Shown here: piece after piece, positions 931-19,744 of the stretch
How the letters are laid out: every line of letters starts with the position of its first letter
Numbering within the stretch: the first letter of the stretch is position 1
Source: an uncultured Bacillus sp.
GTDB taxonomy: Bacteria; Bacillota; Bacilli; ZCTH02-B2
Direction of reading: 5' to 3'
Assembly (NCBI GenBank): GCA_947085265.1
Contig: CAMTVR010000012.1
Location: 178,180-242,179, forward strand
Length of the DNA stretch: 64,000 bases
Position numbers and translations under genes: made by a program
Notes under the pieces: model-generated
The model's database searches: none
Told to the model about the DNA's origin: nothing
Seen by the model: the letters and a program-made list of their open reading frames with translations, nothing else

Positions 931-2207
931 GATCAGGCGAAAGGGCGGGATTGGGATTGAAATCGGAGATCGTTGCCGTGGGTACCGAGTTGTTGCTCGG
1001 GCAAATTGCAAACACCAACGCCCAGTATCTCTCACAAAAGCTTTCAGAAATCGGCATTGATGTATATTATCACACGGCTGTCGGGGATAACGCGACACGG
1101 ATCAAAGAGGTGCTTCATCTTGCGCGCCAGCGTTCAGACCTGATCATCTTGACGGGTGGTCTGGGGCCGACAGAGGATGATCTGACGAAAGAGATGGTGG
1201 CCGAACTGCTCGGGCGACCGTTAGTCGTGCACCAGCCTTCCTTGGACAAAATCACCGCTTTCTTTGCCAAACGGGGCCTCGTGATGACGGAAAACAATCG
1301 CAAGCAGGCGAACGTGATTCAAGGAAGTCGAATCTTCGAAAACCATTACGGCCTGGCTCCTGGCATGGCTGTTTCCGATGCGGAAAAGAAGATTTGGTAC
1401 GTGTTGCTTCCTGGGCCGCCAAGAGAAATGAAGCCGATGGTTCAAGATTTCGTCCTCCCTTTTCTCGCCTCTCTTCTCCCCGAACCGCTGGTGATTCATT
1501 CGAAAGTGTTGCACTTTTACGGAATTGGTGAGTCCTTGCTCGAGGATCGGATCAAGGATTTGATTCAGCAACAGAACAACCCGACCATTGCGCCGCTGGC
1601 TGGTGATCGGGAAGTAAATGTTCGCCTGACGGCAAAAGCTGTCTCCAAGGAAAAGGCGGAACAGATGCTCCAGCCGCTTGTCGAAGAATTGTACCGTCGT
1701 TTTCCGAACCATATATATGCTGAGGGGGAGAATCTGCGGCTGGAGCATATTTTGATCGAGGAATTGCGTAAACGCGGCGATACGTTGGCCGTTGCGGAAA
1801 GTTGTACGGGAGGACAGCTAAGCCGGTCGATCACTTCGGTCGCAGGAAGTTCCACTGTTTTTCAAGGCGGCGTGGTCAGCTATTCGCTGGCCACGAAGCG
1901 GGACGTGTTAGGCATTCCCCAAGACTTGCTGGACCAGTACGGCACAGTATCACGCCAGACGGCTGAGGCAATGGCTGAACATGTTCAACGTCTGTGCCGA
2001 ACGACATGCGGTATTGGTATTACAGGTGTTGCGGGGCCTGATGAGCTGGAAGGCCAACCGGTCGGTTTGGTGTGGATCGCTTGGAGATTGGGCGAACGGT
2101 CACACGTGCGGGAATACCAATATGCCGGCGATCGCCAAGAAATTCAAACGCGCGCCGTCAAGACGGCGATGTTTAAGCTCATCCAATTGTTGCGAGAGAA
2201 AGGTTGA
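927..2207 (+). CDS. cinA: competence/damage-inducible protein CinA (MoCF-binding plus CinA C-terminal domain)
   Basis: N-terminus LGLKSEIVAVGTELLLGQIANTNAQYLSQKL is the typical CinA start; ATG at 927 overlaps the pgsA stop as ATGA; lies upstream of recA. Confidence 0.9.
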   Translation: MRSGERAGLGLKSEIVAVGTELLLGQIANTNAQYLSQKLSEIGIDVYYHTAVGDNATRIKEVLHLARQRSDLIILTGGLGPTEDDLTKEMVAELLGRPLVVHQPSLDKITAFFAKRGLVMTENNRKQANVIQGSRIFENHYGLAPGMAVSDAEKKIWYVLLPGPPREMKPMVQDFVLPFLASLLPEPLVIHSKVLHFYGIGESLLEDRIKDLIQQQNNPTIAPLAGDREVNVRLTAKAVSKEKAEQMLQPLVEELYRRFPNHIYAEGENLRLEHILIEELRKRGDTLAVAESCTGGQLSRSITSVAGSSTVFQGGVVSYSLATKRDVLGIPQDLLDQYGTVSRQTAEAMAEHVQRLCRTTCGIGITGVAGPDELEGQPVGLVWIAWRLGERSHVREYQYAGDRQEIQTRAVKTAMFKLIQLLREKG

Positions 2208-2214
2208 AGTCTAC

Positions 2215-3825
2215 GTGAAAAGTTTCTCCGAACTATCGATTCAAGAAGAAATCTTGAAATCCATTTCAGATATGGGGTTTGAGGAGCCATCACCGATTCA
2301 GGAAGCCTGTATCCCCGTGATTCTGGAAGGAAAAGACGTCATCGGACAGGCGCAGACAGGCACGGGGAAAACGGCTGCTTTCGGGATCCCCGTCATTCAA
2401 GGTGTTGATCCGAAAAAACTGGCCGTACAAGCCATTATCCTGACGCCTACACGCGAATTGGCCATTCAGGTTTCTGCCGAATTGCGAAAAATTTCCCGGT
2501 ATAAATCGCTGCGGATTCTCCCGATCTACGGCGGACAATCCATTCGCCATCAGATTCGCGCTCTCCAGCAGGGGGTTCATGTGGTCATTGGTACACCGGG
2601 AAGAGTTTTGGATCACTTGCGTCGCCGTACACTCCATCTCAATCAGGTTGCCTACTTGGTTTTGGATGAGGCAGATGAAATGCTGGATATGGGGTTCATT
2701 GACGAGATTGAACAGATCATCATTGCCACGCCCAAGGAGAGACAAACCTTGCTCTTTTCCGCCACCATGCCGAACGAGATCCGGAGATTGGCAAAACGTT
2801 ATCTCAAGGATCCGGTACCCATTTCGATCAACCGTGGCGATGTCCATGTACCATACATTGAACAGGTGTATTACCGGGTATTGGAATCTCACAAATTGGA
2901 AGTGTTGTGCCGGATTATTGACAGCGAAGAAGTGGAACAGGGCATTGTGTTTTGTCGCACAAAAAAAGGGGTGGACGCGCTGACCGAGGCGCTGCAGGAA
3001 CGCGGGTACCTGGTTGACGGCATTCACGGAGATCTCAGCCAGATGCAACGGGATAAAGTGATGAAGGCATTTCGCGAAGGAGAAATTGAATTACTGGTGG
3101 CGACGGATGTGGCGGCCCGCGGGATTGATGTCAGCAACGTTTCGCACGTGATCAATTATGATATTCCTCAGGATCCCGAAAGTTACGTTCACCGGATCGG
3201 CCGGACAGGGCGTGCGGGACGTTCAGGTGTCGCGATGACGCTTGTCACGCCAAGGGAAATGAAGTTGCTCCACACCATTCAGGAGCAGACCAAAATGAGC
3301 ATTTCGCCCAGAGAGCTGCCCTCTTTGGAGGAGGTGACACGTAAAAAACGCTCGCAGTGGCGGGAGCAGCTGGTGGCTGTCTTAAATGAAGGAGAAGCGC
3401 TCGATCAGTATGATGAGTTGATTGAGGAATTGCAGGCTCATTATCCTCTGAAAGAGATTGCCCGCGCCGCGCTGCACTTACACTATTCCTCTCACCTCGC
3501 CAATCTTCAATGGAACGAATACGATTTTGGCGATACAGGGGCATCTCTTGGCATGGTCCGGCTGTTTATCAACATTGGCCGCAGAGCGGGGTTGAAACCG
3601 CGCATGCTGATCGATTTGATCACCAGCGCGATCGGTGTCACTTCCCAATCTATCGGTCGGATTGACCTGTTTGATGATTTTTCCTTTGTGGAAGTCAAGG
3701 AGCAGGTGGCTCCCTTTGTTCTCGAAGGCTTGAAATATGTAAACTTTTTAGGCGTTCGCATCAATGTGGAGCCGGCCAGGCCGCGCAACAAGGCGAAAAG
3801 GAATGAATGGAACCGTCATTCGTGA
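2215..3825 (+). CDS. DEAD-box ATP-dependent RNA helicase (CshA/DeaD-like) with C-terminal DbpA-type RNA-binding domain
   Basis: Q-motif/PIQ, AQTGTGKT (motif I), DEAD, SAT, HRIGRTGR motifs; GTG start at 2215 just after the cinA stop; the long ORF track start at 1981 overlaps cinA and is rejected. Confidence 0.85.
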   Translation: MKSFSELSIQEEILKSISDMGFEEPSPIQEACIPVILEGKDVIGQAQTGTGKTAAFGIPVIQGVDPKKLAVQAIILTPTRELAIQVSAELRKISRYKSLRILPIYGGQSIRHQIRALQQGVHVVIGTPGRVLDHLRRRTLHLNQVAYLVLDEADEMLDMGFIDEIEQIIIATPKERQTLLFSATMPNEIRRLAKRYLKDPVPISINRGDVHVPYIEQVYYRVLESHKLEVLCRIIDSEEVEQGIVFCRTKKGVDALTEALQERGYLVDGIHGDLSQMQRDKVMKAFREGEIELLVATDVAARGIDVSNVSHVINYDIPQDPESYVHRIGRTGRAGRSGVAMTLVTPREMKLLHTIQEQTKMSISPRELPSLEEVTRKKRSQWREQLVAVLNEGEALDQYDELIEELQAHYPLKEIARAALHLHYSSHLANLQWNEYDFGDTGASLGMVRLFINIGRRAGLKPRMLIDLITSAIGVTSQSIGRIDLFDDFSFVEVKEQVAPFVLEGLKYVNFLGVRINVEPARPRNKAKRNEWNRHS

Positions 3826-3870
3826 TGAGGAGGTCCGATCACAGAGCCGACCATTTTTCGTTCGCTTCAT

Positions 3871-3884
3871 CGAACATATGCTTG
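3871..3884 (+). promoter_or_regulatory. candidate LexA (Cheo/SOS) box CGAACATATGCTTG overlapping the -35 of a putative recA promoter (TTGCTC-17nt-TAAGAT, about 3882-3910)
   Basis: 12/14 match to the Bacillus Cheo consensus CGAACRNRYGTTYC; located about 70 nt upstream of the recA start. Confidence 0.4.
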
Positions 3885-3952
3885 CTCTTCCTGTAAGCGT
3901 CAGGTAAGATAGGTATCAGAAGAGCCTTTTGACAAGCAAGGGGGAGAGGAAT

Positions 3953-5011
3953 GTGGGAGCAGACCGGCAAGCAGCTTTGGAAATGGCCTTAAGGCAAATC
4001 GAAAAACAGTTTGGTAAAGGTTCCGTGATGAAACTGGGAGAAGCGCAAGCCTCGCTCCAGGTAGAAACCATTCCCAGCGGCGCATTGGCTTTGGACATCG
4101 CGTTAGGTGTGGGTGGCTATCCCAAAGGAAGAATTATTGAAATCTATGGACCGGAATCGTCCGGCAAAACGACCGTTGCCCTGCATGCGATCGCAGAAGC
4201 GCAGAAACTGGGCGGCACGGCCGCCTTTATCGACGCGGAACATGCTTTGGATCCGATTTATGCCCAGAATCTCGGTGTGAATATTGACGAACTTCTCTTA
4301 TCGCAGCCGGACACGGGAGAACAAGCTTTGGAAATCGCGGAAGCGCTGGTGCGCAGCGGGGCTGTTGACATCATCGTCATTGATTCAGTGGCGGCGCTGG
4401 TTCCAAAGGCGGAAATTGACGGCGAGATGGGAGACAGTTACGTCGGTTTACAAGCGCGCCTGATGTCTCAAGCGATGCGCAAATTATCGGGTGCGATCAA
4501 CAAGTCCAAGTGTATTGCCATTTTTATCAACCAGATCAGGGAGAAAGTGGGCGTGATGTTTGGCAACCCTGAAACCACGCCGGGCGGACGAGCCCTCAAA
4601 TTTTACAGCAGTATTCGCCTGGAGGTACGCCGGGCCGAGACGATCAAACAAGGAAATGAAATGGTCGGGAACCGTACCAAAATCAAGGTGGTCAAGAACA
4701 AGGTGGCGCCTCCCTTCCGCCAGGCGGAGGTAGACATCATGTATGGTGAGGGAATTTCGCGTGAAGGCAGTATCATCGACATTGCCGCCGAATTGGACAT
4801 TCTCCAGAAAAGCGGAGCATGGTACTCCTATCAGGGCGAGCGTCTAGGTCAAGGAAGGGAAAATGTCAAACTGTACTTGAAAGAACATCCGGAAGTGGCT
4901 GAAGCGATTGAGAAGCAGATTCGTGAAGTTTGCCAGATAACCCCCCTTCGAATTGTGACATCGGCCGATGTTTCCCCAGATGCGGATGACCCATTTCCGG
5001 CTGAACTGTAA
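3953..5011 (+). CDS. recA: recombinase RecA
   Basis: [29 protein letters not shown]-terminus, Walker [10 protein letters not shown]; GTG start at 3953 preceded by GGGGAGAGG RBS. Confidence 0.95.
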
Positions 5012-5037
5012 ATCAACGATCAAAACGGCAACTGAAC

Positions 5038-5667
5038 ATGCCTGGTTTGTACATTACCGCGATTGAGCCGGTACCCTCTGAGCCCCATCGATGCCAGATT
5101 CGAATCGAAGGGGAAGTCGCATTTACCGTTCATCAATCGGTCATCCGGAAACTCGGCCTGACAGCGGGAAGTGTCTGGGATGAACATCTTCATCGACAAC
5201 TTCTCCACGAAGAAGAGTGTATTCAAGCCAAAAAATGCGCTTATCGATATTTGGCGGCCAGTTGGCGTACGAGCGGTGAAGTAAGGCAATACTTGTTACG
5301 ACGAGGGTTTTCCGAAGATGTTGTCCAGCCTGTGCTGGAGCATTGTCGCCAACGAAAATACTTAGATGATCAAGTCTATGCTGAACAGTACATCCATCAC
5401 CGCTTGCAAAGAGGATACGGCCCCTTGCGGATCGCTCAGGAACTGTCCCGTAAAGAGATCGATCCAGCGATATACGAACCGATATTGTCGTGTGTCGATC
5501 AAGATGAGTTGTTTCAGGTTGCAAAGCGTGTAGCGTTGAAAAAAGAAAAGTCGTTGGGAAAACGAATATCATCCCTTGACAAACAGGTCAAAATCGGGCG
5601 TTACCTATATTACAGGGGTTTTTCCCAAAATGTGATCCAAAAAGTGCTCAACCTCCTCTTTTCTTGA
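5038..5667 (+). CDS. recX: recombination regulator RecX
   Basis: three-helix RecX repeats (RQYLLRRGFSEDVVQPVLEHCRQRKYLDDQVYAEQYIHHRL); sits immediately downstream of recA. Confidence 0.85.
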   Translation: MPGLYITAIEPVPSEPHRCQIRIEGEVAFTVHQSVIRKLGLTAGSVWDEHLHRQLLHEEECIQAKKCAYRYLAASWRTSGEVRQYLLRRGFSEDVVQPVLEHCRQRKYLDDQVYAEQYIHHRLQRGYGPLRIAQELSRKEIDPAIYEPILSCVDQDELFQVAKRVALKKEKSLGKRISSLDKQVKIGRYLYYRGFSQNVIQKVLNLLFS

Positions 5668-5684
5668 GCGTCTTTGGCGCATTC

Positions 5685-5713
5685 TTGACATTCCCTGGTA
5701 AAAAGCATAGAAT
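5685..5713 (+). promoter_or_regulatory. sigma-A type promoter TTGACA-17nt-TAGAAT
   Basis: -35 TTGACA at 5685-5690, 17-nt spacer, -10 TAGAAT at 5708-5713. Confidence 0.55.
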
Positions 5714-5788
5714 GAGACTGCAATCTCATGGTGCTGCCTGGTCTTCGCGATTCATACCTGCATGTGATGGGAATGGAAGCAATAAAGT

Positions 5789-5815
5789 GAGACCGTGTAA
5801 TCGGTCTTTTTTTTA
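5789..5815 (+). terminator. intrinsic terminator-like hairpin (AGACCG-TGTAAT-CGGTCT plus T8) in the rny leader
   Basis: perfect 6-bp GC-containing stem followed by a TTTTTTTT run, 18 nt upstream of the rny start. Confidence 0.55.
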
Positions 5816-5832
5816 GAGAGGGGGGACGCACG

Positions 5833-7374
5833 ATGGATCTGCTCACAGTGGCCATCCCAACCCTCGTTGCATTGTTCATAGGCTTGGCAGCAGGGTATTG
5901 GATGCGCAAGTCGATTGCTGAGTCAAAGATCTCCAGTGCGGAAGAAGCCGCCCGACAAATTGTAGAACAAGCAAAAAAAGAAGCCGAAGCGAAACAAAAA
6001 GAGATTGTACTGGAAGCCAAAGATGAGGCTTTTCGTCTTCGTTCTGAAGCTGAAGCTGAAATCCGCGAACGTCGGAATGAGGTGACCAACCTCGAAAGGC
6101 GGATCTTGCAGAAAGAAGAAGTTTTAGAACGGAAAATGGAGTCATTGGAGAACAAGGAACATCATCTGCAAGAGAAAGAACAACATCTGCAATCACTGAT
6201 TGCTGAACAACAAGATATTCTGACCCGACAAAAGCAAGAACTGGAACGCATATCAGGACTGACCGCGGAAGAGGCACGGAACACCATTCTTCAACAAGTG
6301 GAGGAAGAAGTCAAGCATGAAGCGGCACAGCGGATCAAGGAAGCTGAATTAAAGATACGTGAAGAGGCAGATAAAATTGCAAAAGAGATAATTTCTATTG
6401 CAATTCAACGCTGTGCGGCTGATCACGTTGCGGAAACCACCGTATCTGTCGTATCATTGCCCAACGATGAAATGAAAGGGCGGATCATCGGCCGGGAGGG
6501 GAGGAACATTCGAACCCTTGAAACCCTGACCGGGATTGACCTGATTATCGATGACACGCCGGAGGCGGTGATCCTGTCCGGCTTTGATCCGATTCGCCGT
6601 GAAATCGCGCGGGTGGCTTTAGAAAAACTGGTGGCAGACGGCCGCATTCACCCGGCGCGCATTGAAGAAATGGTGGAAAAAGCCCGTAAAGAAGTGGATG
6701 AAAGGATCCGTGAATATGGTGAACAAGCTATGTTTGAGGCGGGTGTTCATGGTTTACACCCCGATCTGATCAAAATCCTCGGTCGCTTAAAGTTCCGAAC
6801 CAGTTATGGTCAGAATGTCTTGCAACATTCTGTAGAAGTGGCGATTCTGGCAGGATTGCTTGCCGCAGAATTAAATGAGGATGTTGCTTTGGCCAGACGG
6901 GCTGGTTTGCTTCACGACATTGGCAAGGCAATTGATCATGAGGTGGAAGGTTCTCATGTTGAGGTGGGTACTGAATTAGCGAAAAAATATAAAGAACATC
7001 CGGTTGTCATTAATGGGATTGGGTATCACCATGGGGAAGTGGAAGCCAATTCAGTCATCTCTGTATTGGTGACTGCTGCGGATGCCATATCGGCAGCAAG
7101 GCCAGGCGCCCGCAGGGAAACCCTGGAAAATTATATCCGACGGCTGGAAAAATTGGAAGCGATATGTGAGTCATTTGAAGGGGTAGAAAAATCTTACGCC
7201 ATTCAAGCGGGAAGGGAAGTCCGCATCATGGTTCACCCGGAAAAGGTAGACGATGCGGAAGCCTACCGGCTAGCTCGGGAAATTACAAAACGGATTGAAA
7301 ATGAGCTAGATTACCCCGGTCACATCAAAGTCACTGTGATTCGTGAAACCAGAGCTGTCGATTATGCGAGATGA
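5833..7374 (+). CDS. rny: ribonuclease Y
   Basis: N-terminal TM helix, coiled-coil, KH domain ([12 protein letters not shown]) and HD domain (HDIGK); synteny after recA. Confidence 0.95.
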
Positions 7375-7403
7375 GAAGTGGCCTGCGCCACTTCCTTTTT
7401 TCT
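7375..7403 (+). terminator. rho-independent terminator after rny
   Basis: GAAGTGGC-CTGC-GCCACTTCC hairpin followed by TTTTTTCTT. Confidence 0.7.
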
Positions 7404-7463
7404 TCGAAGATATCTTTATGAAAGGTGTAAGGTTTATGGCCCTAACGAAGAGGAGGTGTAGCT

Positions 7464-8258
7464 TTGCGGATCTTGTTTATTGGTGATGTTGTTGGCTCCT
7501 CAGGGCGTCGGGCCGTCTCATTCCTTTTGCCAAAATTGAAGGATAAATACCGTCCCGATTTTGTCCTCGTCAATGGGGAAAATGCTGCGGGAGGTCGAGG
7601 GATCACCCTTAAAATTGCAAAGCAGTTGTTTGAATGGGGAGCTGACGGGATTACATTGGGCAACCACGCCTGGGATAATAAAGAGATCTTTGAATTTATT
7701 GATCAGGAGAAGCGGATTGTCAGACCTGCCAATTATCCATCTGGCACACCTGGCCAAGGAATGATGATTCTTCGAAAAGGATCCCATCAACTGGCTGTGA
7801 TCAATCTTCAGGGACAGACCTATCTCCCACCGCTCAAAAATCCTTTTCATACCATCGATGAGATCGTAAAGGAACTGCAGGATCAGGTCAAACACATCTT
7901 CATTGATTTTCACGCAGAGGCTTCTGCGGAAAAAATTGCCTTGGGATGGTACTTAGATGGACGGGTGTCTTGTGTTGTGGGCACTCATACACACGTTCAG
8001 ACCAATGATTGCCGGATTCTCCCTCATGGCACAGCATATCAAACCGACGTCGGCATGACCGGACCCAAGGATGGGGTCATCGGCATGAGAAAGGATATCA
8101 TTATCAAAAAATTTTTGACCCAACTTCCAGTCCGCTTTGAGGTAGATCGAGGGCCATGGCAATTGAATGCGACGTTGGTTGAACTGGACGATCTAACCGG
8201 TGCGGCCCTGCGGATTCAAGCGTTTCACCTCACAGAGGATCAACCATGGATGGGTTAA
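7464..8258 (+). CDS. ymdB: YmdB-family metallophosphoesterase (2',3'-cyclic nucleotide phosphodiesterase)
   Basis: MRILFIGDVVGSSGRRAV N-terminus typical of the TIGR00282 family; synteny rny-ymdB-spoVS. Confidence 0.9.
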   Translation: MRILFIGDVVGSSGRRAVSFLLPKLKDKYRPDFVLVNGENAAGGRGITLKIAKQLFEWGADGITLGNHAWDNKEIFEFIDQEKRIVRPANYPSGTPGQGMMILRKGSHQLAVINLQGQTYLPPLKNPFHTIDEIVKELQDQVKHIFIDFHAEASAEKIALGWYLDGRVSCVVGTHTHVQTNDCRILPHGTAYQTDVGMTGPKDGVIGMRKDIIIKKFLTQLPVRFEVDRGPWQLNATLVELDDLTGAALRIQAFHLTEDQPWMG

Positions 8259-8370
8259 CACATCCATACTAACGTATAAATGATCCGGAATATTTTTCGC
8301 ATCCAGAGAATAAGAAAAGATAGTAAAAGGTGAAGCGAATCTTGAATCTGACGAGGAGGGAAAGCGGCTG

Positions 8371-8631
8371 ATGGAAGTATTAAAGGTTTCAGCAAAATCC
8401 AACCCCAATTCGGTTGCCGGCGCATTGGCGGGCGTTCTGAGAGAACGAGGTTCTGCGGAAATGCAAGCGATTGGTGCGGGTGCTTTAAACCAAGCCGTGA
8501 AAGCGATTGCCATCGCCAGAGGGTTTGTCGCGCCTAGCGGCATTGATCTGATTTGTATTCCGGCATTTACTGACATCATCATCGATGGAGAAGAGCGAAC
8601 AGCGATAAAATTGATTGTGGAACCGAGATAA
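8371..8631 (+). CDS. spoVS: stage V sporulation protein S
   Basis: 86-aa protein MEVLKVSAKSNPNSVAGALAGVLRERG; highly conserved SpoVS. Confidence 0.9.
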   Translation: MEVLKVSAKSNPNSVAGALAGVLRERGSAEMQAIGAGALNQAVKAIAIARGFVAPSGIDLICIPAFTDIIIDGEERTAIKLIVEPR

Positions 8632-8649
8632 GAGGAGCGAGATAGATGT

Positions 8650-8695
8650 CTAAAACCTGTTTGTCAAAAGATAAACAGGTTTTAGTTGTTTTTTA
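8650..8695 (+). terminator. rho-independent terminator after spoVS
   Basis: CTAAAACCTGTTT...AAACAGGTTTTAG 13-bp stem followed by TTGTTTTTT. Confidence 0.75.
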
Positions 8696-8761
8696 GACCT
8701 TCTATGCCTTGCCTAAGAATAACAATAGGGATATGATAGATGATTGGAAGGGGAGAACAGG

Positions 8762-9745
8762 GTGAAAATTGTGGATGCCCACTGTGATGTTTTATGGAAA
8801 GTCTGGGCAAATCCAGCGGTCACATTTCATGATCATCTCAGCAAATCAGAAGGAGGCTTAGCTTCTTCTCGTTTACATGCAAGCGCACCATTATTGAGGC
8901 AGTCAGGGGTTTTCGTGCAATCGTTTGCTGTATACATACCTCCATCCGTCCGTCCTCAGAGTCGATTTTACACTGCGCTTCAAATGATCGACCTGTATCA
9001 ACGGCAGGTTATCCAAGATGGCGGTGAATGGATACCGTTTCGCTCAGCTGCCGATTTAGAATGGGCCAACCAGCATGGCAAGCGGGTCGCGATGCTGACG
9101 CTGGAAGGGGCTGATGCGATTCAGGGTGATCTGCTCTATCTGCGAATCTTGTATCATTTGGGCGTTCGGATTGTCGGGTTGACATGGAATTATCGCAATG
9201 AGGTGGCAGATGGGGTCGCAGAGCCACGTCCGGGAGGATTGTCCGCTTTTGGACGCCAGTTTGTCAAAGAGGCTCGTCGAAATGGCATGTTGCTGGATGT
9301 TTCCCACCTCTCAGAAGCCGGTTTTTGGGATCTGCTTTCCATCCACCATGAACCTGTGATTGCCTCTCATTCGAACGTTTTTGAAATCAGAAATCATCGG
9401 CGAAATCTCCGGAAGGAACAAGTGGAAGCCATTTTTGCGACAGGTGGTTGTATCGGGTTGACGTTTGTCGGAGACTTTGTCAGCGAACAGCAGCCGGCCA
9501 CGCTGGATGATTTTCTCAAGCACTTGGAACGCTGTTGTGAGTGGGGCGGTGTGAGGCAAACTGGCATTGGTTCTGACTTCGACGGCTGTGATCGCTTGCT
9601 GGCAGAACTGGGACATGCGGGTCAACTGAATCAACTGGTGGAAGCGTTGTTGAAACGTTACAAAGAAGATGAGGTAAAGGGATTTATGGGTGAAAATTGG
9701 TTGCGGTTGTATCGTCATTTTTTCCGACCCGCCTCTAGCGGATGA
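8762..9745 (+). CDS. membrane dipeptidase family (M19, renal dipeptidase-like) protein
   Basis: VKIVDAHCDVLWK N-terminal motif and HxD metal ligands; GTG at 8762 follows AAGGGGAG RBS (the ORF track start at 8744 is also possible). Confidence 0.75.
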   Translation: MKIVDAHCDVLWKVWANPAVTFHDHLSKSEGGLASSRLHASAPLLRQSGVFVQSFAVYIPPSVRPQSRFYTALQMIDLYQRQVIQDGGEWIPFRSAADLEWANQHGKRVAMLTLEGADAIQGDLLYLRILYHLGVRIVGLTWNYRNEVADGVAEPRPGGLSAFGRQFVKEARRNGMLLDVSHLSEAGFWDLLSIHHEPVIASHSNVFEIRNHRRNLRKEQVEAIFATGGCIGLTFVGDFVSEQQPATLDDFLKHLERCCEWGGVRQTGIGSDFDGCDRLLAELGHAGQLNQLVEALLKRYKEDEVKGFMGENWLRLYRHFFRPASSG

Positions 9746-12812: not shown

Positions 12813-14285
12813 GTGAGTCAGATGGGAATTCTGATAACGCCGGATCAACTCAGAGCAAAAAAGCGGGGAAAAGAAGAGGTCCAGATTCATCGGTTTGAAT
12901 CGATTCCATCAGAGTTGAGGGAACTGGGAAAAGGAAAGAAATACCTGATTCGAACCTATGGGTGCCAGATGAATGTGCATGACAGCGAGACCATCGCCGG
13001 TCTTCTGGAAATGATGGGGTACCAAGAGACAGCGGATGAGTGTGAGGCAGATTTGATTCTCTTTAATACCTGTGCGATTCGTGAAAATGCAGAGGACAAA
13101 GTGTTTGGCGAGCTCGGACGCCTCAAACCGCTCAAGACCACGAACCCAGGACTCATTCTAGGCGTATGCGGTTGTATGGCACAGGAAGAAACGGTTGTCC
13201 AGCGAATTCTGCAAGCCTATCCGCACGTGGATCTGGTGTTCGGCACTCACAATATCCACCGACTTCCCCATCTCCTGAAGGAAGCGCTGTACAGCAAGGA
13301 GATGGTGGTGGAAGTTTGGTCAAAAGAAGGGGATATTGTTGAACATCTGCCAAAGGCTCGCCGGGAGTCGCTAAGGGCGTGGGTGAATATCATGTACGGG
13401 TGTGACAAGTTCTGCACTTACTGCATCGTCCCTTACACACGCGGCAAAGAACGAAGTCGCCTTCCACAAGATGTACTGGATGAGGTGCGCCATCTGGCGC
13501 GTCACGGATATCAAGAGATCACCCTGCTTGGGCAAAATGTCAACGCATATGGCAAAGATTTTACAGATTTCCGGTATGACTTTGCGGACTTGCTGGATGA
13601 GGTGCGCAAAATCGGGATTCCGCGTGTTCGTTTTACGACCAGTCATCCAAAAGATTTTGATGATCGTCTTATCGAAGTGCTGGCCAAAGGCGGTAATCTC
13701 GTGGAGCATGTTCATTTGCCGGTTCAATCTGGCAATACCACTGTCCTGAAGCGGATGGCACGCAAGTATACCCGCGAGGAATATTTGCGGCTGGTTGAAA
13801 AAATCAAGCGAGCAATTCCAGGAGTTGTTCTAACGACGGATATCATCGTCGGTTTCCCCGGCGAAACAGAGGAACAGTTTGCCGATACGCTTTCTCTGGT
13901 CAAAGAGGTGGAGTTTGATTCGGCCTTTACCTTTATCTACTCCCCTCGCCCCGGAACGCCGGCTGCTAAGTACAAAGATGACGTTCCCATGGAAGAGAAG
14001 AAGCAAAGACTGGAACGACTGAACGAGTTGCAAGGCGAGATAAGCCGCCGGAAAAACGAGCAACTGCGCGGACAAGTGGTTGAAGTCCTGGTGGAAGGAG
14101 AAAGCAAGACAGACGCTGATGTTCTCAGCGGACGGACCCGCACCAACAAATTGGTTCACTTTAAAGGTCCTAAAGCGCTCATTGGTCAACTGATTTCAGT
14201 CAAAATCACCCAACCCCAGACTTGGACGCTCAAAGGCGAATGGATCGAAATGCCAAAATATGAAGTGGTGGAGGCAGTACAGTGA
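12813..14285 (+). CDS. miaB: tRNA-2-methylthio-N6-dimethylallyladenosine synthase MiaB (radical SAM)
   Basis: MTTase N-domain [11 protein letters not shown], radical SAM CxxxCxxC (CDKFCTYC), TRAM domain; a TATAAT -10 lies at 12677-12682 upstream. Confidence 0.9.
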
Positions 14286-14845: not shown

Positions 14846-15424
14846 TTGAATATGTCAACTGCCACCCAACGGTACCAATGTCGAGAGATCTTCGCCAAGG
14901 CGGTTTGTGGCAAAGGTCGGAAGTTTTCTCAGTCCACGCATACGGTAACTCCCTCGACCCCACCGGTTCACATTCTTGGCGCTTGGGTGATCAATCACAA
15001 GTATAAAGCGATAAAATCCGGAGATTTTGTGGAAATTGTCGGCACCTATGATCTAAACGTATGGTATGCTTGTGAGAAAAATACCAAGACGGAAGTGGCC
15101 AACGAGACGGTTTCCTATGTGGATCACGTTCCCCTTTCTTTTTTAGATGGCAACATGAAGGACAGCGATGTGCAGGTGCTGGTGACGCCCACATTGGAAC
15201 CCAACTGCATTGATGCGTATCTTTCGCCAAATGGCACCCATTTTGTCATCGAAGTGGAACGGGAGTTTTTAGTGGAGATCATTGGCGAGACGAAACTGTC
15301 GGTTCTGGTCTGCTCCAGTGATGAAGATTGGGTTGATAAAGATTTTGACTTAGATTTTATGGATGATGAACTTCCAAATGATCTTTCCGATGAAGACGAT
15401 GAAGCAGATGATTTGCTTTTGTAA
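14846..15424 (+). CDS. cotE: spore coat morphogenetic protein CotE
   Basis: strong similarity to B. subtilis CotE (ILGxWxINHKY, EIxGxYDxNVWY, ISPNG...EREFL) with acidic C-terminal tail; synteny upstream of mutS. Confidence 0.85.
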   Translation: MNMSTATQRYQCREIFAKAVCGKGRKFSQSTHTVTPSTPPVHILGAWVINHKYKAIKSGDFVEIVGTYDLNVWYACEKNTKTEVANETVSYVDHVPLSFLDGNMKDSDVQVLVTPTLEPNCIDAYLSPNGTHFVIEVEREFLVEIIGETKLSVLVCSSDEDWVDKDFDLDFMDDELPNDLSDEDDEADDLLL

Positions 15425-15454
15425 TCAAAAATGAATGATTGAATGCCTTTCATG

Positions 15455-15488
15455 GAGCCCCTCTCCAAATCGAAGGGACTCTTTTTTC
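15455..15488 (+). terminator. probable terminator after cotE
   Basis: imperfect GAGCCCC...GGGACTC stem followed by TTTTTT. Confidence 0.45.
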
Positions 15489-15604
15489 ACGGGGCATTCT
15501 TTTTTTACATACTTTAGAATGTAGCCATTCACCATTAACCCTGGTTCAGAAGCATTCCCTTTAGCTTCTAGCTCCACCAGGAGAAGCCGAAGCATCACTC
15601 TCCT

Positions 15605-17026
15605 GTGGCAGCTGCAAAAGGGGGGAAGGAGTTGCAAGGATTTCTGCTTCATCGAAATCGAAAAGATCTTGCAAAAAAAGCCCGTGAAGAAGGGTTAATG
15701 GAAGGAGGTACCATACCATCTCACATTCAACCTGATGTTTTGATTTTATGGGATCAGCACATGATGTCAGACCATTCTAATCATTCTAACATTATTGTGC
15801 TCAATCGGCAGCAAGCCGTTCAGCAAGCGATGGATGCCAACGTGCGAACAAGCATTTTACAACTAAGTGGGATATCGTGCGTTACATCTGAAAAACCCAT
15901 CCGTTTTCCGCGGAGGTATTACATCGTTTTATTTCAGCACCAAGTCATGGGAGTGTATTTGTTCCAAAAAGCAACCGTATGGCAGATGGATGAAAAAAAA
16001 TCCCGATTACAAAGAGGGACGTTCCTTCCGCAGAAAAAGTATTCACTGGAGGTGAAACGAGCCATCCGTTTGGCCATCGGCGCTCTCTACGCAATGGGTT
16101 TAGATTTTGGGGGGATCTTGATCGGTGTTCGAACATCCCATTCGATGAAGATCATCGATATTGATCCGACACCTCATTGCACACCTGCCGTTTTAGGACA
16201 TTATGCACGAACCTTTGTCCGGTATTGTCGGACCATCATGGAGCCAGATGAAATGACCCTCGGCACCGACATCGAATTCTTATTGAGTAGCCGATCCGGA
16301 AAGCCGGTTCCGGCCTCTCGATTTATGTCTTATCGAGGAAGGGTGGGATATGATGCATACCGTGATCCCCAGAATCGGTCCGTGCACCCGATTGCAGAGC
16401 TTCGCCCTTTACCAAGTAAACATCCTCTGCAACTCTATCGAAACTTGTATGCAACCATGAAACAGGCCAATAAAATGATTGGCTCATCCAACTTGTCCTG
16501 GTTGGCAGGGAATGAACCCATCGCAAATCTTCCGATTGGTGGACATTTGCATTTTGGCAATGTACCTTTTCATTTTTTGTTGCTTCGTGTTTTGGATGAA
16601 TATTTGGCTTTACCGTTTCGCATTTTAGAAGATCCACGAGGCATCTCGCGACGGCCCAAATATGGAAAGTTAGGGGATGTACGGACCAAACGGCATGGGT
16701 TTGAATACCGAACATTGTCCAGCTTTATTTATTCTCCCAAAATCACGCTCGCCACATTTGTCCTGGCAAAGTTCCTCGTTCATCACCATTTAAAACTTCC
16801 CATTGGGACGTTGTTGAATCCGGATGTATTGCATTCTTATTACCGTGGAAATGGAGCTGAGCTCTACTCACTTGCTGAAGCCAAAATGTCATTGATTGAA
16901 TCGCTTCCGCAATATGAAAATGTCAAGGAGCATGTCAATCCATTATTTCAAAAAATACGTGAAGGAACTCCTTGGGATGAAAAGAAAGATATTCGCCCTG
17001 CCTGGAGGCTGACCTTGCCTTACTGA
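15605..17026 (+). CDS. hypothetical protein (function unknown; C-terminal half faintly resembles GS-like/COOH-NH2 amidoligase domains); start codon uncertain
   Basis: long ORF with good coding texture between cotE and mutS; no motif I can name confidently; no clean RBS at the candidate starts 15605 (GTG), 15632 (TTG) or 15698 (ATG). Confidence 0.45.
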   Translation: MAAAKGGKELQGFLLHRNRKDLAKKAREEGLMEGGTIPSHIQPDVLILWDQHMMSDHSNHSNIIVLNRQQAVQQAMDANVRTSILQLSGISCVTSEKPIRFPRRYYIVLFQHQVMGVYLFQKATVWQMDEKKSRLQRGTFLPQKKYSLEVKRAIRLAIGALYAMGLDFGGILIGVRTSHSMKIIDIDPTPHCTPAVLGHYARTFVRYCRTIMEPDEMTLGTDIEFLLSSRSGKPVPASRFMSYRGRVGYDAYRDPQNRSVHPIAELRPLPSKHPLQLYRNLYATMKQANKMIGSSNLSWLAGNEPIANLPIGGHLHFGNVPFHFLLLRVLDEYLALPFRILEDPRGISRRPKYGKLGDVRTKRHGFEYRTLSSFIYSPKITLATFVLAKFLVHHHLKLPIGTLLNPDVLHSYYRGNGAELYSLAEAKMSLIESLPQYENVKEHVNPLFQKIREGTPWDEKKDIRPAWRLTLPY

Positions 17027-17074
17027 TACTTATGTTATAATACTGGCAAAACACCAGCAGCGAGGCGGAGAAAC

Positions 17075-19744
17075 ATGGGCTCTGTAGCAAATAAACCAAC
17101 GGGCAAACTGACGCCTATGATGGAACAATATTTTTCGATCAAGGAAGCGCATCCCGATGCCTTCTTGTTTTTTCGTCTGGGCGATTTTTATGAACTTTTC
17201 TTTGATGATGCCGTTCAGGCGTCCGAGATGCTCGGTTTAACGCTGACCAGTCGTGGAATGATAGGGGACCAACCCATCCCGATGTGCGGGGTACCATACC
17301 ATGCAGCGGATACATATATCGAACAACTGATTGCGCTTGGATATAAAGTGGCGATCTGTGAGCAGGTGGAGGATCCGAAGACGGCCAAGGGTGTCGTGCG
17401 ACGAGAAGTCGTTCAAATCATCACGCCGGGAACATGGCTTGGAAATGAAGAAAAAGGAAATAGCTACATCTGCTCGATTTTTTTGCAGGATGAATTCTTT
17501 TACCTGGCTTCTGGTGATCTCAGCACAGGGGAACTGGAACTTGTTCGCCATCCAATGTCCCTGGAAGGAGTGTTAGATGAGTGTGCGAGATACCAGCCGC
17601 GTGAGATTCTCCTGGCGGATACACTCACACACCCGTTGAGGCATTCTTTTGAGCGGCGGTTTAAGGGGATCATCACGACCGTTACACCACCTGATAAAGA
17701 GAAAAGCAGTCAATTACTCGCAACCTGGCTCGTTGATCCGCCCGTTTTACATCTTGCGGCGCAGCAGACGATCGGCCAGTTGCTTCATTATTGGCAAGAG
17801 ACGCAAAAGCGGGTCCTCCGGCATTTTCATCTTTCACTGGTCGAGGCAACGCAGTATCTGTTGATGGATGGATTTACGGTTCGCAATCTGGAGCTGTTTG
17901 AGCGGTTATCCGGAGACAAAAAGGCGACCTTGCTCGATCATTTGGACCGAACAGCGACCACCATGGGAGCTAGGCGGTTAAGGCAGTGGCTGGCCAAACC
18001 ATTGGTGGATCGGAGCCAAATTGAACAAAGGCTGGAGGCAGTGGAAGCGCTGGTGGAAGATCCGATGCGGCGCGAAGAGATCCGACAAATCCTGCGGCAA
18101 GTATACGATCTGGAACGAATCGCCACCCGCGTTGCCATGGGCATCGCCTCGCCAAAAGATTTGCTCTCGCTGAAACAATCGTTGGAGCAAGTGCCTGATT
18201 TGCGCACCCATTGCCTTTCCTCATCTTCCTCGTCACTCCAGCAATTAGGCGCGGTCATGGACCTTTGTTTGCCAGTTCGCGAATTGATTGAACGGGCCAT
18301 TGCTCCAGATGCACCTGTACAATTTCAGGAGGGTCGCGTGATACGGGATGGGTACGATCCGCAATTGGATGAGCTCAGACAGATCGCACGAGAGGGTAAG
18401 AAATGGATTGCGGAACTGGAAGCTCACGAACGCGAGGCCACCGGGATTAAATCCTTAAAGATCGGGTTTAATCAAGTGTTTGGCTATTACATCGAGGTCA
18501 CGAAGGCCAATTTTGCGCTGGTGCCTTTGGATCGTTATCAGCGGAAGCAGACATTGGCCAATGCAGAGCGTTACGTGACCGAAGAGCTGAAGGAACGGGA
18601 ACGGCTAATCCTGGAAGCGGAAGAAAAGCTGGCGGCTTTGGAATATCAACGATTTGTTGAGGTACGAGAACAAGTGGCGGCTTCTACACACCGCATTCAA
18701 TCGCTGGCGCGGAACTTGGCAATTTTGGATCTTTATGCCACATTTGCGGAAATCAGCGTACAGGAGCGGTATGTTCGCCCAGTTTTTTCCACAAACCAGC
18801 GCATGAACATTGTTGAAGGGCGACATCCCGTCGTTGAAAAGATGATCTCGGACCAATCTTTTATCGCGAACGATACCAGGATGGATCACCAATGCCGGAT
18901 CTTGCTTTTGACGGGTCCCAACATGGCGGGAAAGAGCACCTATATGCGCCAAGTGGCGTTGATTGCCATTTTGGCGCAAATCGGCTGTTTTGTGCCAGCC
19001 ACCAGCGCTGAGTTGCCTTTATTTGACCGCATCTTTACACGGATTGGCGCATCGGATGATCTGGCCAGCGGGCAAAGCACCTTCATGGTGGAAATGAATG
19101 AAATAAGACTGACCACGACTCAAGCCACGAAAAACAGCCTGGTGATCATTGATGAGCTGGGCAGGGGAACCTCCACCGAAGACGGGATGGCGATCGCTTG
19201 CGCAGTGATTGAGTATTTGCATGATCAGATCGGGTGTTTATCGTTAGTCTCTACCCATTATCACGAGTTGGCCGAGTTGGAATCGACGCTTCAGGGACTG
19301 AAAAATGTCAGCATGGCTGTGGAAGAGACGGAAAATGATGTCCTCTTCTTGCGCCGTTTGATAGAAGGACCCGCGAGCAAAAGTTACGGAATTTATTGTG
19401 CGAAGTTGGCGGGTCTTCCAGCATCCATTATCGAGCGCGCTGAACAACTCCTCGCGCATTATGCCTCGAACGAAATAAAAAACCGGATGGGAGAGACGAA
19501 ATCCGCGCAATCGATGGGAGAACCAGAATTTGCAACCGTTCGCGAAGAGGTGGCTGCCACATCAAAAGCATTTGAGGAGGCCGGAACACAGCAATTGAGT
19601 TTGTTTGGCGAAGCGGATGATCGAGATGGAAAACCGATTCAGGAAATCTTGGACAAATTGAAAAAGTTGGATCTGGACCGGACCACGCCACTTCAGGCGT
19701 TGCAAATTTTGTACCAATTAAAGCGGAAAGGAGGGTGGTTGTAA
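17075..19744 (+). CDS. mutS: DNA mismatch repair protein MutS
   Basis: TPMMEQY N-terminus, Walker A GPNMAGKST, full-length MutS architecture. Confidence 0.95.
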   Translation: MGSVANKPTGKLTPMMEQYFSIKEAHPDAFLFFRLGDFYELFFDDAVQASEMLGLTLTSRGMIGDQPIPMCGVPYHAADTYIEQLIALGYKVAICEQVEDPKTAKGVVRREVVQIITPGTWLGNEEKGNSYICSIFLQDEFFYLASGDLSTGELELVRHPMSLEGVLDECARYQPREILLADTLTHPLRHSFERRFKGIITTVTPPDKEKSSQLLATWLVDPPVLHLAAQQTIGQLLHYWQETQKRVLRHFHLSLVEATQYLLMDGFTVRNLELFERLSGDKKATLLDHLDRTATTMGARRLRQWLAKPLVDRSQIEQRLEAVEALVEDPMRREEIRQILRQVYDLERIATRVAMGIASPKDLLSLKQSLEQVPDLRTHCLSSSSSSLQQLGAVMDLCLPVRELIERAIAPDAPVQFQEGRVIRDGYDPQLDELRQIAREGKKWIAELEAHEREATGIKSLKIGFNQVFGYYIEVTKANFALVPLDRYQRKQTLANAERYVTEELKERERLILEAEEKLAALEYQRFVEVREQVAASTHRIQSLARNLAILDLYATFAEISVQERYVRPVFSTNQRMNIVEGRHPVVEKMISDQSFIANDTRMDHQCRILLLTGPNMAGKSTYMRQVALIAILAQIGCFVPATSAELPLFDRIFTRIGASDDLASGQSTFMVEMNEIRLTTTQATKNSLVIIDELGRGTSTEDGMAIACAVIEYLHDQIGCLSLVSTHYHELAELESTLQGLKNVSMAVEETENDVLFLRRLIEGPASKSYGIYCAKLAGLPASIIERAEQLLAHYASNEIKNRMGETKSAQSMGEPEFATVREEVAATSKAFEEAGTQQLSLFGEADDRDGKPIQEILDKLKKLDLDRTTPLQALQILYQLKRKGGWL

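Follow-up and report, generated by a model that had tools for sequence, protein, structure and literature searches.

What does a gene lying between cotE and mutS do, and to which of these two neighbours does it belong? The question is raised by a 64-kb stretch of DNA from an uncultured Bacillus sp. (GenBank assembly GCA_947085265.1, contig CAMTVR010000012.1, positions 178,180 to 242,179), referred to here as the window, in which a large plus-strand open reading frame (ORF), which we call X, separates the two genes. CotE holds the central place in organising the outer spore coat. We describe here an X protein composed of a C-terminal carboxylate-amine ligase domain and an N-terminal domain that is a degenerate ATP-grasp, and a genomic neighbourhood in which the conserved partner of X is cotE, not mutS. 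On these grounds we lean towards the view that X is a carboxylate-amine ligase dependent on ATP, produced by the mother cell and associated with the coat.

The X gene and its family

The X ORF is uninterrupted from position 15605 to 17026 (473 codons, GTG to TGA, in the ORF list). Pfam matches bear out both flanks named in the initial annotation of the window: cotE, which encodes the outer spore coat morphogenetic protein of 192 amino acids (aa), lies at 14846..15424 on the plus strand (PF10628, E=8.5e-66), and mutS lies at 17075..19744 on the same strand (five MutS Pfam domains). That annotation left X unassigned, finding no motif that it could name and only a faint likeness of the C-terminal half, marked by the strings GHLHFGNVPF and RHGFEYR, to glutamine synthetase (GS)-like COOH-NH2 amidoligases. 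Both strings are present in the ORF and the type of enzyme was correctly recognised; the likeness, however, is not faint, and the protein is readily assigned. Residues 219-469 of the 473-aa ORF match the whole of the Pfam model PF14395 (positions 1-254 of 254) with 277.9 bits and E=8.4e-83, the gathering cutoff of the model being 25 bits. PF14395, COOH-NH2_lig, comprises phage phiEco32-like COOH-NH2 ligases of type 2.

A protein database search with X returned 94 homologues, every one of them with PF14395, and NCBI and UniProt label relatives of X as 'putative amidoligase domain-containing protein'. Scanning genomes at one per species identified at least 584 loci that encode X relatives, and the neighbourhood counts given below are based on the best 80 of these. 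Because the Pfam model is matched in full and is accompanied by 94 homologues and at least 584 species-level genomic matches, X is identified by its matches as a real ORF rather than a chance reading frame, and as a regular member of an existing, already labelled Pfam family. No NCBIfam model matches the protein. Its nearest named relative is a hypothetical protein from a 'Bacillus thermozeamaize' metagenome-assembled genome (MAG), which falls in the same cluster at 90% or above as P0002, a protein 75% identical to X. The nearest genomic locus, L001, is from the compost-type Bacillota MAG ZC4RG07 (64% to X). These matches place the window in a thermophilic lineage of Bacillota that is uncultured or poorly described.

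The ligase domain and the N-terminal domain

PDB sequences were searched with the single X protein, with a profile of its N-terminal domain and with a whole-family profile, and nothing significant was found, RimK appearing only at E 0.1-0.4. Since no solved relative could be detected by sequence, fold comparison was needed. The C-terminal domain (16259..17011, plus strand) has a GS-type catalytic fold, that of the GS and GCS2 enzymes. Its highest score, 16.5, was obtained with the carboxylate-amine ligase YbdK (1tt4, 224 residues aligned), followed by 14.8 with the Pup ligase PafA and 14.5 with Dop, 13-14.5 with Glu-Cys ligases and 10-11.5 with glutamine synthetases. Eighteen residues do not vary among the 83 aligned homologues, X included, although overall identity is only about 30%. 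Numbered from TTG 15632, the start codon proposed below, they are G211, D213, E215, E256, R258, P259, G293, G303, H305, H307, R340, G345, G348, F357, E358, Y359, R360 and T361. The resulting pattern of D-x-E, E-x-R, H-x-H, R-R and E-x-R is presumably that of the metal-, ATP- and phosphate-binding strands expected of GS/GCS2 enzymes, and from its conserved residues the domain looks catalytically active.

X is nevertheless distinct from the systems that share this fold. YbdK/GCS2 enzymes and Glu-Cys ligases have no detectable sequence-level similarity to X and carry no fused ATP-grasp, whereas X has one. PafA and Dop are actinobacterial proteins tied to Pup and the proteasome, and their accessory domains differ from those of X. 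The phage members of PF14395 are stand-alone proteins of about 268 aa, 25-29% identical to X, which has in addition its N-terminal domain and a cotE neighbourhood. In the one phage locus examined, that of Escherichia phage KBNP1711 (L081), the PF14395 gene adjoins an Amidoligase_2 gene and a GlmS-like amidotransferase; X is fused to an ATP-grasp-like domain and lies between cotE and mutS.

The N-terminal half, which the initial annotation did not recognise, has the ATP-grasp fold. It comprises residues 1-206 (15632..16249, plus strand) and resembles RimK and LysX in a degenerate form that we predict to be non-catalytic. Pfam detects nothing in this half of X or of 27 family members; no ATP-grasp model, that of RimK included, matches. 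A profile of the domain searched against 1.84 billion representative proteins gave 2,923 matches at E<=0.001. The top-ranked matches are mostly fusions of about 450-500 aa, and the profile also found stand-alone proteins, 235-270 aa long, that Pfam identifies as RimK-like or R2K-type ATP-grasps. Seven of these (P0319, P0320, P0323, P0329, P0334, P0335 and P0341) look, from their sequences, like active ancestors or relatives of the X domain.

When the seven were aligned with five N-terminal domains of the X family, both groups were found to contain the motifs RWG, LN..A(V/I) and ALGLDFG. Only the stand-alone proteins, however, carry a central segment of about 50 residues, the Asp of a GVD (or AAD) motif and an EVN motif. 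In the X family the central segment is deleted and GVD reads GG(I/V)x; the window protein has GGIL at this position and D-I-D at that of EVN. By our own reading of the alignment, the lost segment would hold the Gly-rich loop and the hinge that clamp ATP. Across 83 sequences the first position of the metal-binding ExN motif (176) is D in 21, R in 12, S in 10, G in 8 and others in the rest, and the last (178) is D in 16, T in 14, S in 14, R in 13 and otherwise variable. An hhalign comparison placed the domain in the same register as YheC/D, another group of ATP-grasp proteins (LGLDfG...Vl.V.P.P against ELGiD...l.EvNskP), with 84% probability for a local match confined to the last strands. YheC/D proteins keep the ExN motif and the full ATP-grasp length, which the X domain does not, and the HMM for their family, PF14398, has no match in the X protein.

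RimK and LysX/ArgX are ATP-grasp ligases that act on acidic protein C-termini. The X domain differs from them in spanning only about 206 aa and in having neither the central segment nor the D/E-x-N metal ligands. Because these are missing, along with any match to the RimK Pfam model, the domain is not expected to catalyse ligation. It is also the less constrained half of the protein: mean pairwise identity is 21% in the N-terminal domain and 42% in the C-terminal domain, and only 3 of 206 columns are at least 90% conserved in the former, against 47 of 258 in the latter. By these measures it evolves much faster than the catalytic domain. We conclude from its predicted features that it is a pseudo-enzyme domain derived from an ATP-grasp, with a role that would most plausibly be the binding of a substrate or partner.

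Neighbouring genes, start codon and transcription signals

The best 80 loci come from Paenibacillus, Brevibacillus, Aneurinibacillus, Ammoniphilus, Tepidibacillus, many Thermoactinomycetaceae, Alicyclobacillus and uncultured Bacillota. In 79 of them cotE lies upstream of X on the same strand, and in the one remaining locus the upstream sequence extends for only 265 nt; mutS lies downstream of X in 74. The order cotE-X-mutS occurs in Paenibacillaceae, Brevibacillaceae, Thermoactinomycetaceae, Aneurinibacillus, Ammoniphilus, Tepidibacillus and Anaerobacillus. No frame disruption of X was seen across the 80 loci, which speaks against a pseudogene, named in the initial annotation as something that would refute its reading.

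The initial annotation also described X as an insertion between two genes that are adjacent in B. subtilis. Because cotE-X-mutS is so broadly distributed, the cotE-mutS adjacency of Bacillus-type genomes, among which B. subtilis counts, looks instead like loss of X, and not like insertion in the present genome. Three loci sampled by way of CotE rather than X include two with the gene, both in the order cotE-X-mutS (Anaerobacillus and Paenibacillus urinalis), and one without it, Bacillus alkalicellulosilyticus (L082), in which cotE is followed by mutS. No trace of a decayed X was found by tblastn in the cotE-mutS spacer of B. alkalicellulosilyticus, even at E 10.

Rearranged loci separate the two neighbours of X. 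In seven Alicyclobacillaceae-like loci (L060, L061, L065, L066, L069, L072 and L079), cotE is followed by YheC/D-type ATP-grasp genes and then by X; in L079 the cluster is at 1468-8810. An M19 dipeptidase gene precedes cotE in six of the seven (it is missing only in L069), and one or two more YheC/D genes lie downstream of X in six. In none of them is mutS the next gene: miaB intervenes in four, and no mutS is present in the flank of the other three. A Thermaerobacter MAG (L085 1457-7419, VSCQ01000007.1) has two PF14395 paralogues, of 446 and 472 aa, flanking cotE, with two YheC/D genes preceding and no mutS in the locus. A gene for an M99/AstE-AspA-type peptidase is found just upstream, on the opposite strand. 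Because cotE stays near X in the Alicyclobacillaceae-like and Thermaerobacter loci, where adjacency to mutS has been lost, cotE is the conserved partner of X and mutS is judged to lie outside its functional unit. Linkage to this core coat gene is thus seen in 79 of the 80 loci, and again in Anaerobacillus, P. urinalis and Thermaerobacter; L086, discussed below, is an exception. The initial annotation was right that the position of X next to cotE is informative, while the sporulation role that it read from that position is one that we infer from the gene context and from promoter-like motifs.

The YheC/YheD (PF14398) genes that accompany X and cotE in these rearranged loci encode relatives of proteins studied in B. 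subtilis. YheD is a protein of the coat basement layer (PMC7725329), and both YheC and YheD are coat-associated ATP-grasp proteins without an assigned activity (PMC7725329; bioRxiv 10.1101/2022.02.25.481979). No YheC/D gene was found in the 64-kb window by tblastn at E<1e-4. The same search gave only an M19 membrane-dipeptidase homologue, at 8747-9709, about 5 kb upstream of cotE and 36% identical to the cotE-adjacent one of Alicyclobacillus herbarius.

The start codon of X had appeared unclear, no candidate having what the initial annotation regarded as an adequate ribosome-binding site (RBS). One does: TTG 15632 is immediately preceded by a Shine-Dalgarno-like purine run, AAAGGGGGGAAGGAG (15617..15631, plus strand). 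We propose this codon as the start, which would give a two-domain amidoligase of 464 aa encoded at 15632..17026 on the plus strand, with the stop TGA at 17024-17026. The proposal is made because several features coincide there in addition to AAAGGGGGGAAGGAG. In an alignment of close relatives (63-75% identity) and distant ones (about 30-38%), the family N-terminus M-x-x-[FY]-[LVI]-[LIM]-[HY] aligns to TTG 15632 (MQGFLLH). The DNA around GGAGTTGCAAGG is kept in L001, whereas the nine codons from GTG 15605 to the TTG are not, and the Melghirimyces orthologue (L004) has the same layout, an equivalent G-rich run followed by ATG 5864. In an AF2 model begun at the TTG, the first beta-strand is made up of residues 3-6, and pLDDT averages 93 over the first ten residues; the model as a whole has a pLDDT of 93.5 and a pTM of 0.94. 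GTG 15605 was rejected as having no purine-rich stretch upstream and nine extra codons that are unconserved. ATG 15698, with which the database version begins (P0001; 442 aa, 100% identical to X), was likewise rejected: it drops conserved, confidently modelled residues that make up the first strand and helix of the N-terminal domain. Both starts appear less likely than the TTG, and 22 codons are probably missing from the database annotation.

Signals that may govern transcription of X were sought in the spacers on either side. RNA folding of 15420-15640 and reading of the sequence indicate nested terminator-like hairpins 3' of cotE (15441..15506, plus strand). An inner stem at 15454-15482 is followed by a T-run at 15483-15487, and an outer stem, in which 15441-15449 pairs with 15491-15499, is followed by seven T residues at 15500-15506. 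A simple terminator scan did not report a hairpin at this site; a comparable hairpin and T-run are present 3' of cotE in L001 and L004. The sigma-K consensus is AC-16/17-CATAnnnTA, and a match to it is found at 15489..15516 (plus strand), where AC (15489-15490) and CATACTTTA (15508-15516) are separated by a spacer of 17 nt; the motif is sigma-K-like by consensus alone. Of 69 cotE-X spacers, 19 have the pattern AC-N16-18-CATAnnnTA on the plus strand, where shuffled sequences predict 0.7, and 1 has it on the minus strand; the Melghirimyces locus shows the full order of terminator, sigma-K-like motif, RBS and ATG. A sigma-E-type -10 element, CATA[CT]AnT, is absent from the coding strand in all 69 spacers. 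On the reverse strand it is present in 25 of the 69, against 1.6 expected from shuffles, mostly in Paenibacillus (e.g. L009, L016-L022), where it is probably a conserved element common to closely related genomes.

Downstream of X, the mutS ATG is preceded at a distance of 34 nt by an extended -10 sequence, TGTTATAAT (17033..17041, plus strand). In 44 of 79 loci the pattern TGnTA[TAC]AAT was found no more than 120 nt upstream of mutS; one of these loci is that of B. alkalicellulosilyticus, which has no X. TGTTATAAT is likely the promoter of mutS itself. Because of the terminator-like hairpin, the sigma-K-like motif and this extended -10, X looks like a separate transcription unit. Its expression is plausibly late and specific to the mother cell, as the motifs suggest.

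Further out in the window, Pfam identifies miaB and a gene of the YlbF/YmcA family upstream, and mutL and miaA downstream. The miaB and ymcA-like genes overlap by 4 nt (14282-14285), and mutS and mutL by 10 nt (19735-19744) if mutL uses the listed GTG, which suggests translational coupling in both pairs. Several of the compared loci depart from the common arrangement in other ways. The cotE match in Aneurinibacillus aneurinilyticus (L037, 1256-1510 and 6001) ends after about 85 residues, 4.5 kb from X, suggesting an insertion or an assembly problem in cotE. About 1-2.7 kb of extra DNA separates X from mutS in six loci of Thermoactinomycetaceae and Paenibacillus (L012, L019, L055, L056, L064 and L074). 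One 3-kb contig, labelled Candidatus Bathyarchaeia (L045, DASQNU010000222.1), carries X followed by mutS with Brevibacillus-like sequence upstream, and is most likely a mis-binned bacterial contig.

Candidate roles in spore-coat assembly

How might these features combine in one protein? In the reading towards which we lean, X is an intact two-domain enzyme from a subfamily of PF14395 that is linked to cotE and spread through the Bacillota, and the C-terminal GS/GCS2-fold domain would be the catalyst. By analogy with enzymes of this fold, ATP and Mg2+ would turn a carboxylate into an acyl-phosphate, and attack by an amine would then yield an amide or isopeptide bond. The N-terminal domain, derived from a small RimK-like ATP-grasp ligase, would serve as a non-catalytic module for substrate binding or docking. 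The mother cell would make X while the coat is being assembled, and X would act on spore-coat material, either alone or together with YheC/D-type ligases where these are present. As to the substrate, the X family is basic (median isoelectric point, pI, 9.5; net charge of the window protein +22), and CotE of the window is acidic (pI 4.3), its last 40 aa having a net charge of -17. We infer that acidic segments of coat proteins, such as the C-terminal tail of CotE, are the favoured candidates. In a more specific form, the dead RimK/LysX-like domain would grip the acidic tail of CotE, or of a similar coat protein, while the GS-fold domain ligates its carboxylates. Amino acids might be added to the tail, as by RimK- and TTL-type enzymes, or the carboxylates might be joined to lysines of a partner in an isopeptide bond of the PafA type. 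We put this version forward tentatively and regard it as rather doubtful in its particulars.

Several observations weigh against a role of X on the coat. The invariant residues were assigned to GS/GCS2 sites by motif pattern and not by residue-level superposition, there being no solved relative at the sequence level. A relative of X in a Syntrophomonadaceae MAG (L086) has no cotE within 1.6 kb upstream or 6 kb downstream; an unannotated ORF upstream of this gene was checked as a possible divergent CotE and is not CotE. The order miaB-ymcA-cotE-X-mutS-mutL could in part be inherited synteny rather than a sign of function. The sigma-K-like motif is missing from the Paenibacillus spacers and from L001, the closest genomic relative, and the 19 loci that have it are mostly related Thermoactinomycetaceae and are not independent. 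CotE tails are essentially alike with and without X (...EEFEDLDPNFLMGDLEE in L082, which has no X, and ...EEFEDLDPNFLTGELEE in L083). Co-variation of the tail with X was therefore discarded as support for CotE as the substrate, since the tails do not differ between carriers and non-carriers. Finally, because the searchable literature yielded no experimental study of a PF14395 member, the chemistry and, above all, the substrate proposed for X rest on analogy.

The main rival reading is that X makes a small molecule or free peptide, such as a gamma-glutamyl compound, a dipeptide or a polymer, and that its adjacency to cotE reflects only timing or shared ancestry. The closest folds, YbdK and the Glu-Cys ligases, favour such a synthetase, as do phage relatives in metabolite-like clusters, and the possible inheritance of the gene order would suit it as well; against it stands the persistence of cotE beside X in rearranged genomes, and we consider it an unlikely explanation, if one to be kept in view. 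If both domains were active, X could be a dual ligase that performs two successive ATP-dependent ligations. The fusion itself would invite this idea, which is improbable given that ExN positions 176 and 178 are variable, that the GVD Asp is replaced in the alignment of five domains with seven, that the central segment of about 50 residues is deleted, and that the domain has no ATP-grasp Pfam match in 27 members and only 3 of 206 well-conserved columns.

A partnership of X with mutS and mutL in DNA repair or base modification has in its favour that X and the mutS downstream of it are separated by 48 nt containing no terminator, that mutS is downstream in 74 of 80 loci, and that the X protein is basic; for phage amidoligases, a role in the hypermodification of thymidine has been suggested. 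However, cotE stays near X in rearranged loci whereas direct adjacency to mutS is lost, mutS has an extended -10 of its own even where X is absent, and the phage relatives are only 25-29% identical and have no N-terminal domain, so that such a partnership seems very improbable. Hardly credible is the idea that X is a decaying or non-functional remnant, whether a pseudogene or a domesticated phage gene that has no role. Bacillus-type genomes do manage without X, and the family has no known experimental function, but the 473 codons of X are uninterrupted, the full Pfam model is matched, no frame is disrupted in 80 loci, 18 residues are invariant in 83 homologues, and the structure is predicted with very high confidence.

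The amidoligase families considered here were reportedly defined by Iyer et al. in 2009, who are said to have linked YheC/D-type ATP-grasps to spore-wall modification and may also mention the neighbourhood of X; we do not claim the cotE context as new. What goes beyond current annotation, as far as we have checked, is the fold of the N-terminal domain and its status as a putative pseudo-enzyme, the corrected start codon, and a quantified linkage to cotE that is separated from mutS. No paper linking the PF14395 family to sporulation was found in the searchable literature, and a literature search for spore-coat glutamylation also found nothing. To our knowledge, coat proteins are not established substrates of any ATP-dependent ligase, and the only known enzymatic cross-linking of the coat is by transglutaminase (Tgl) and oxidative enzymes.

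X is in itself an ordinary member of its family, yet it offers a well-defined lead, inexpensive to test, into a part of spore-coat assembly whose chemistry is unexplored. If it makes a small molecule instead, it would be one more ordinary, uncharacterised amidoligase. If X does modify the coat, this would account for some of the differences between the B. subtilis model and the coats of Paenibacillus, Brevibacillus, Thermoactinomyces and Alicyclobacillus. YheC/D would gain a biochemical setting, and X would be a GS-fold protein-modifying enzyme outside the Pup system. And if the more specific proposal for the CotE tail were true, spore formers other than Bacillus would have an energy-driven maturation of the coat, distinct from cross-linking by Tgl and by oxidation.

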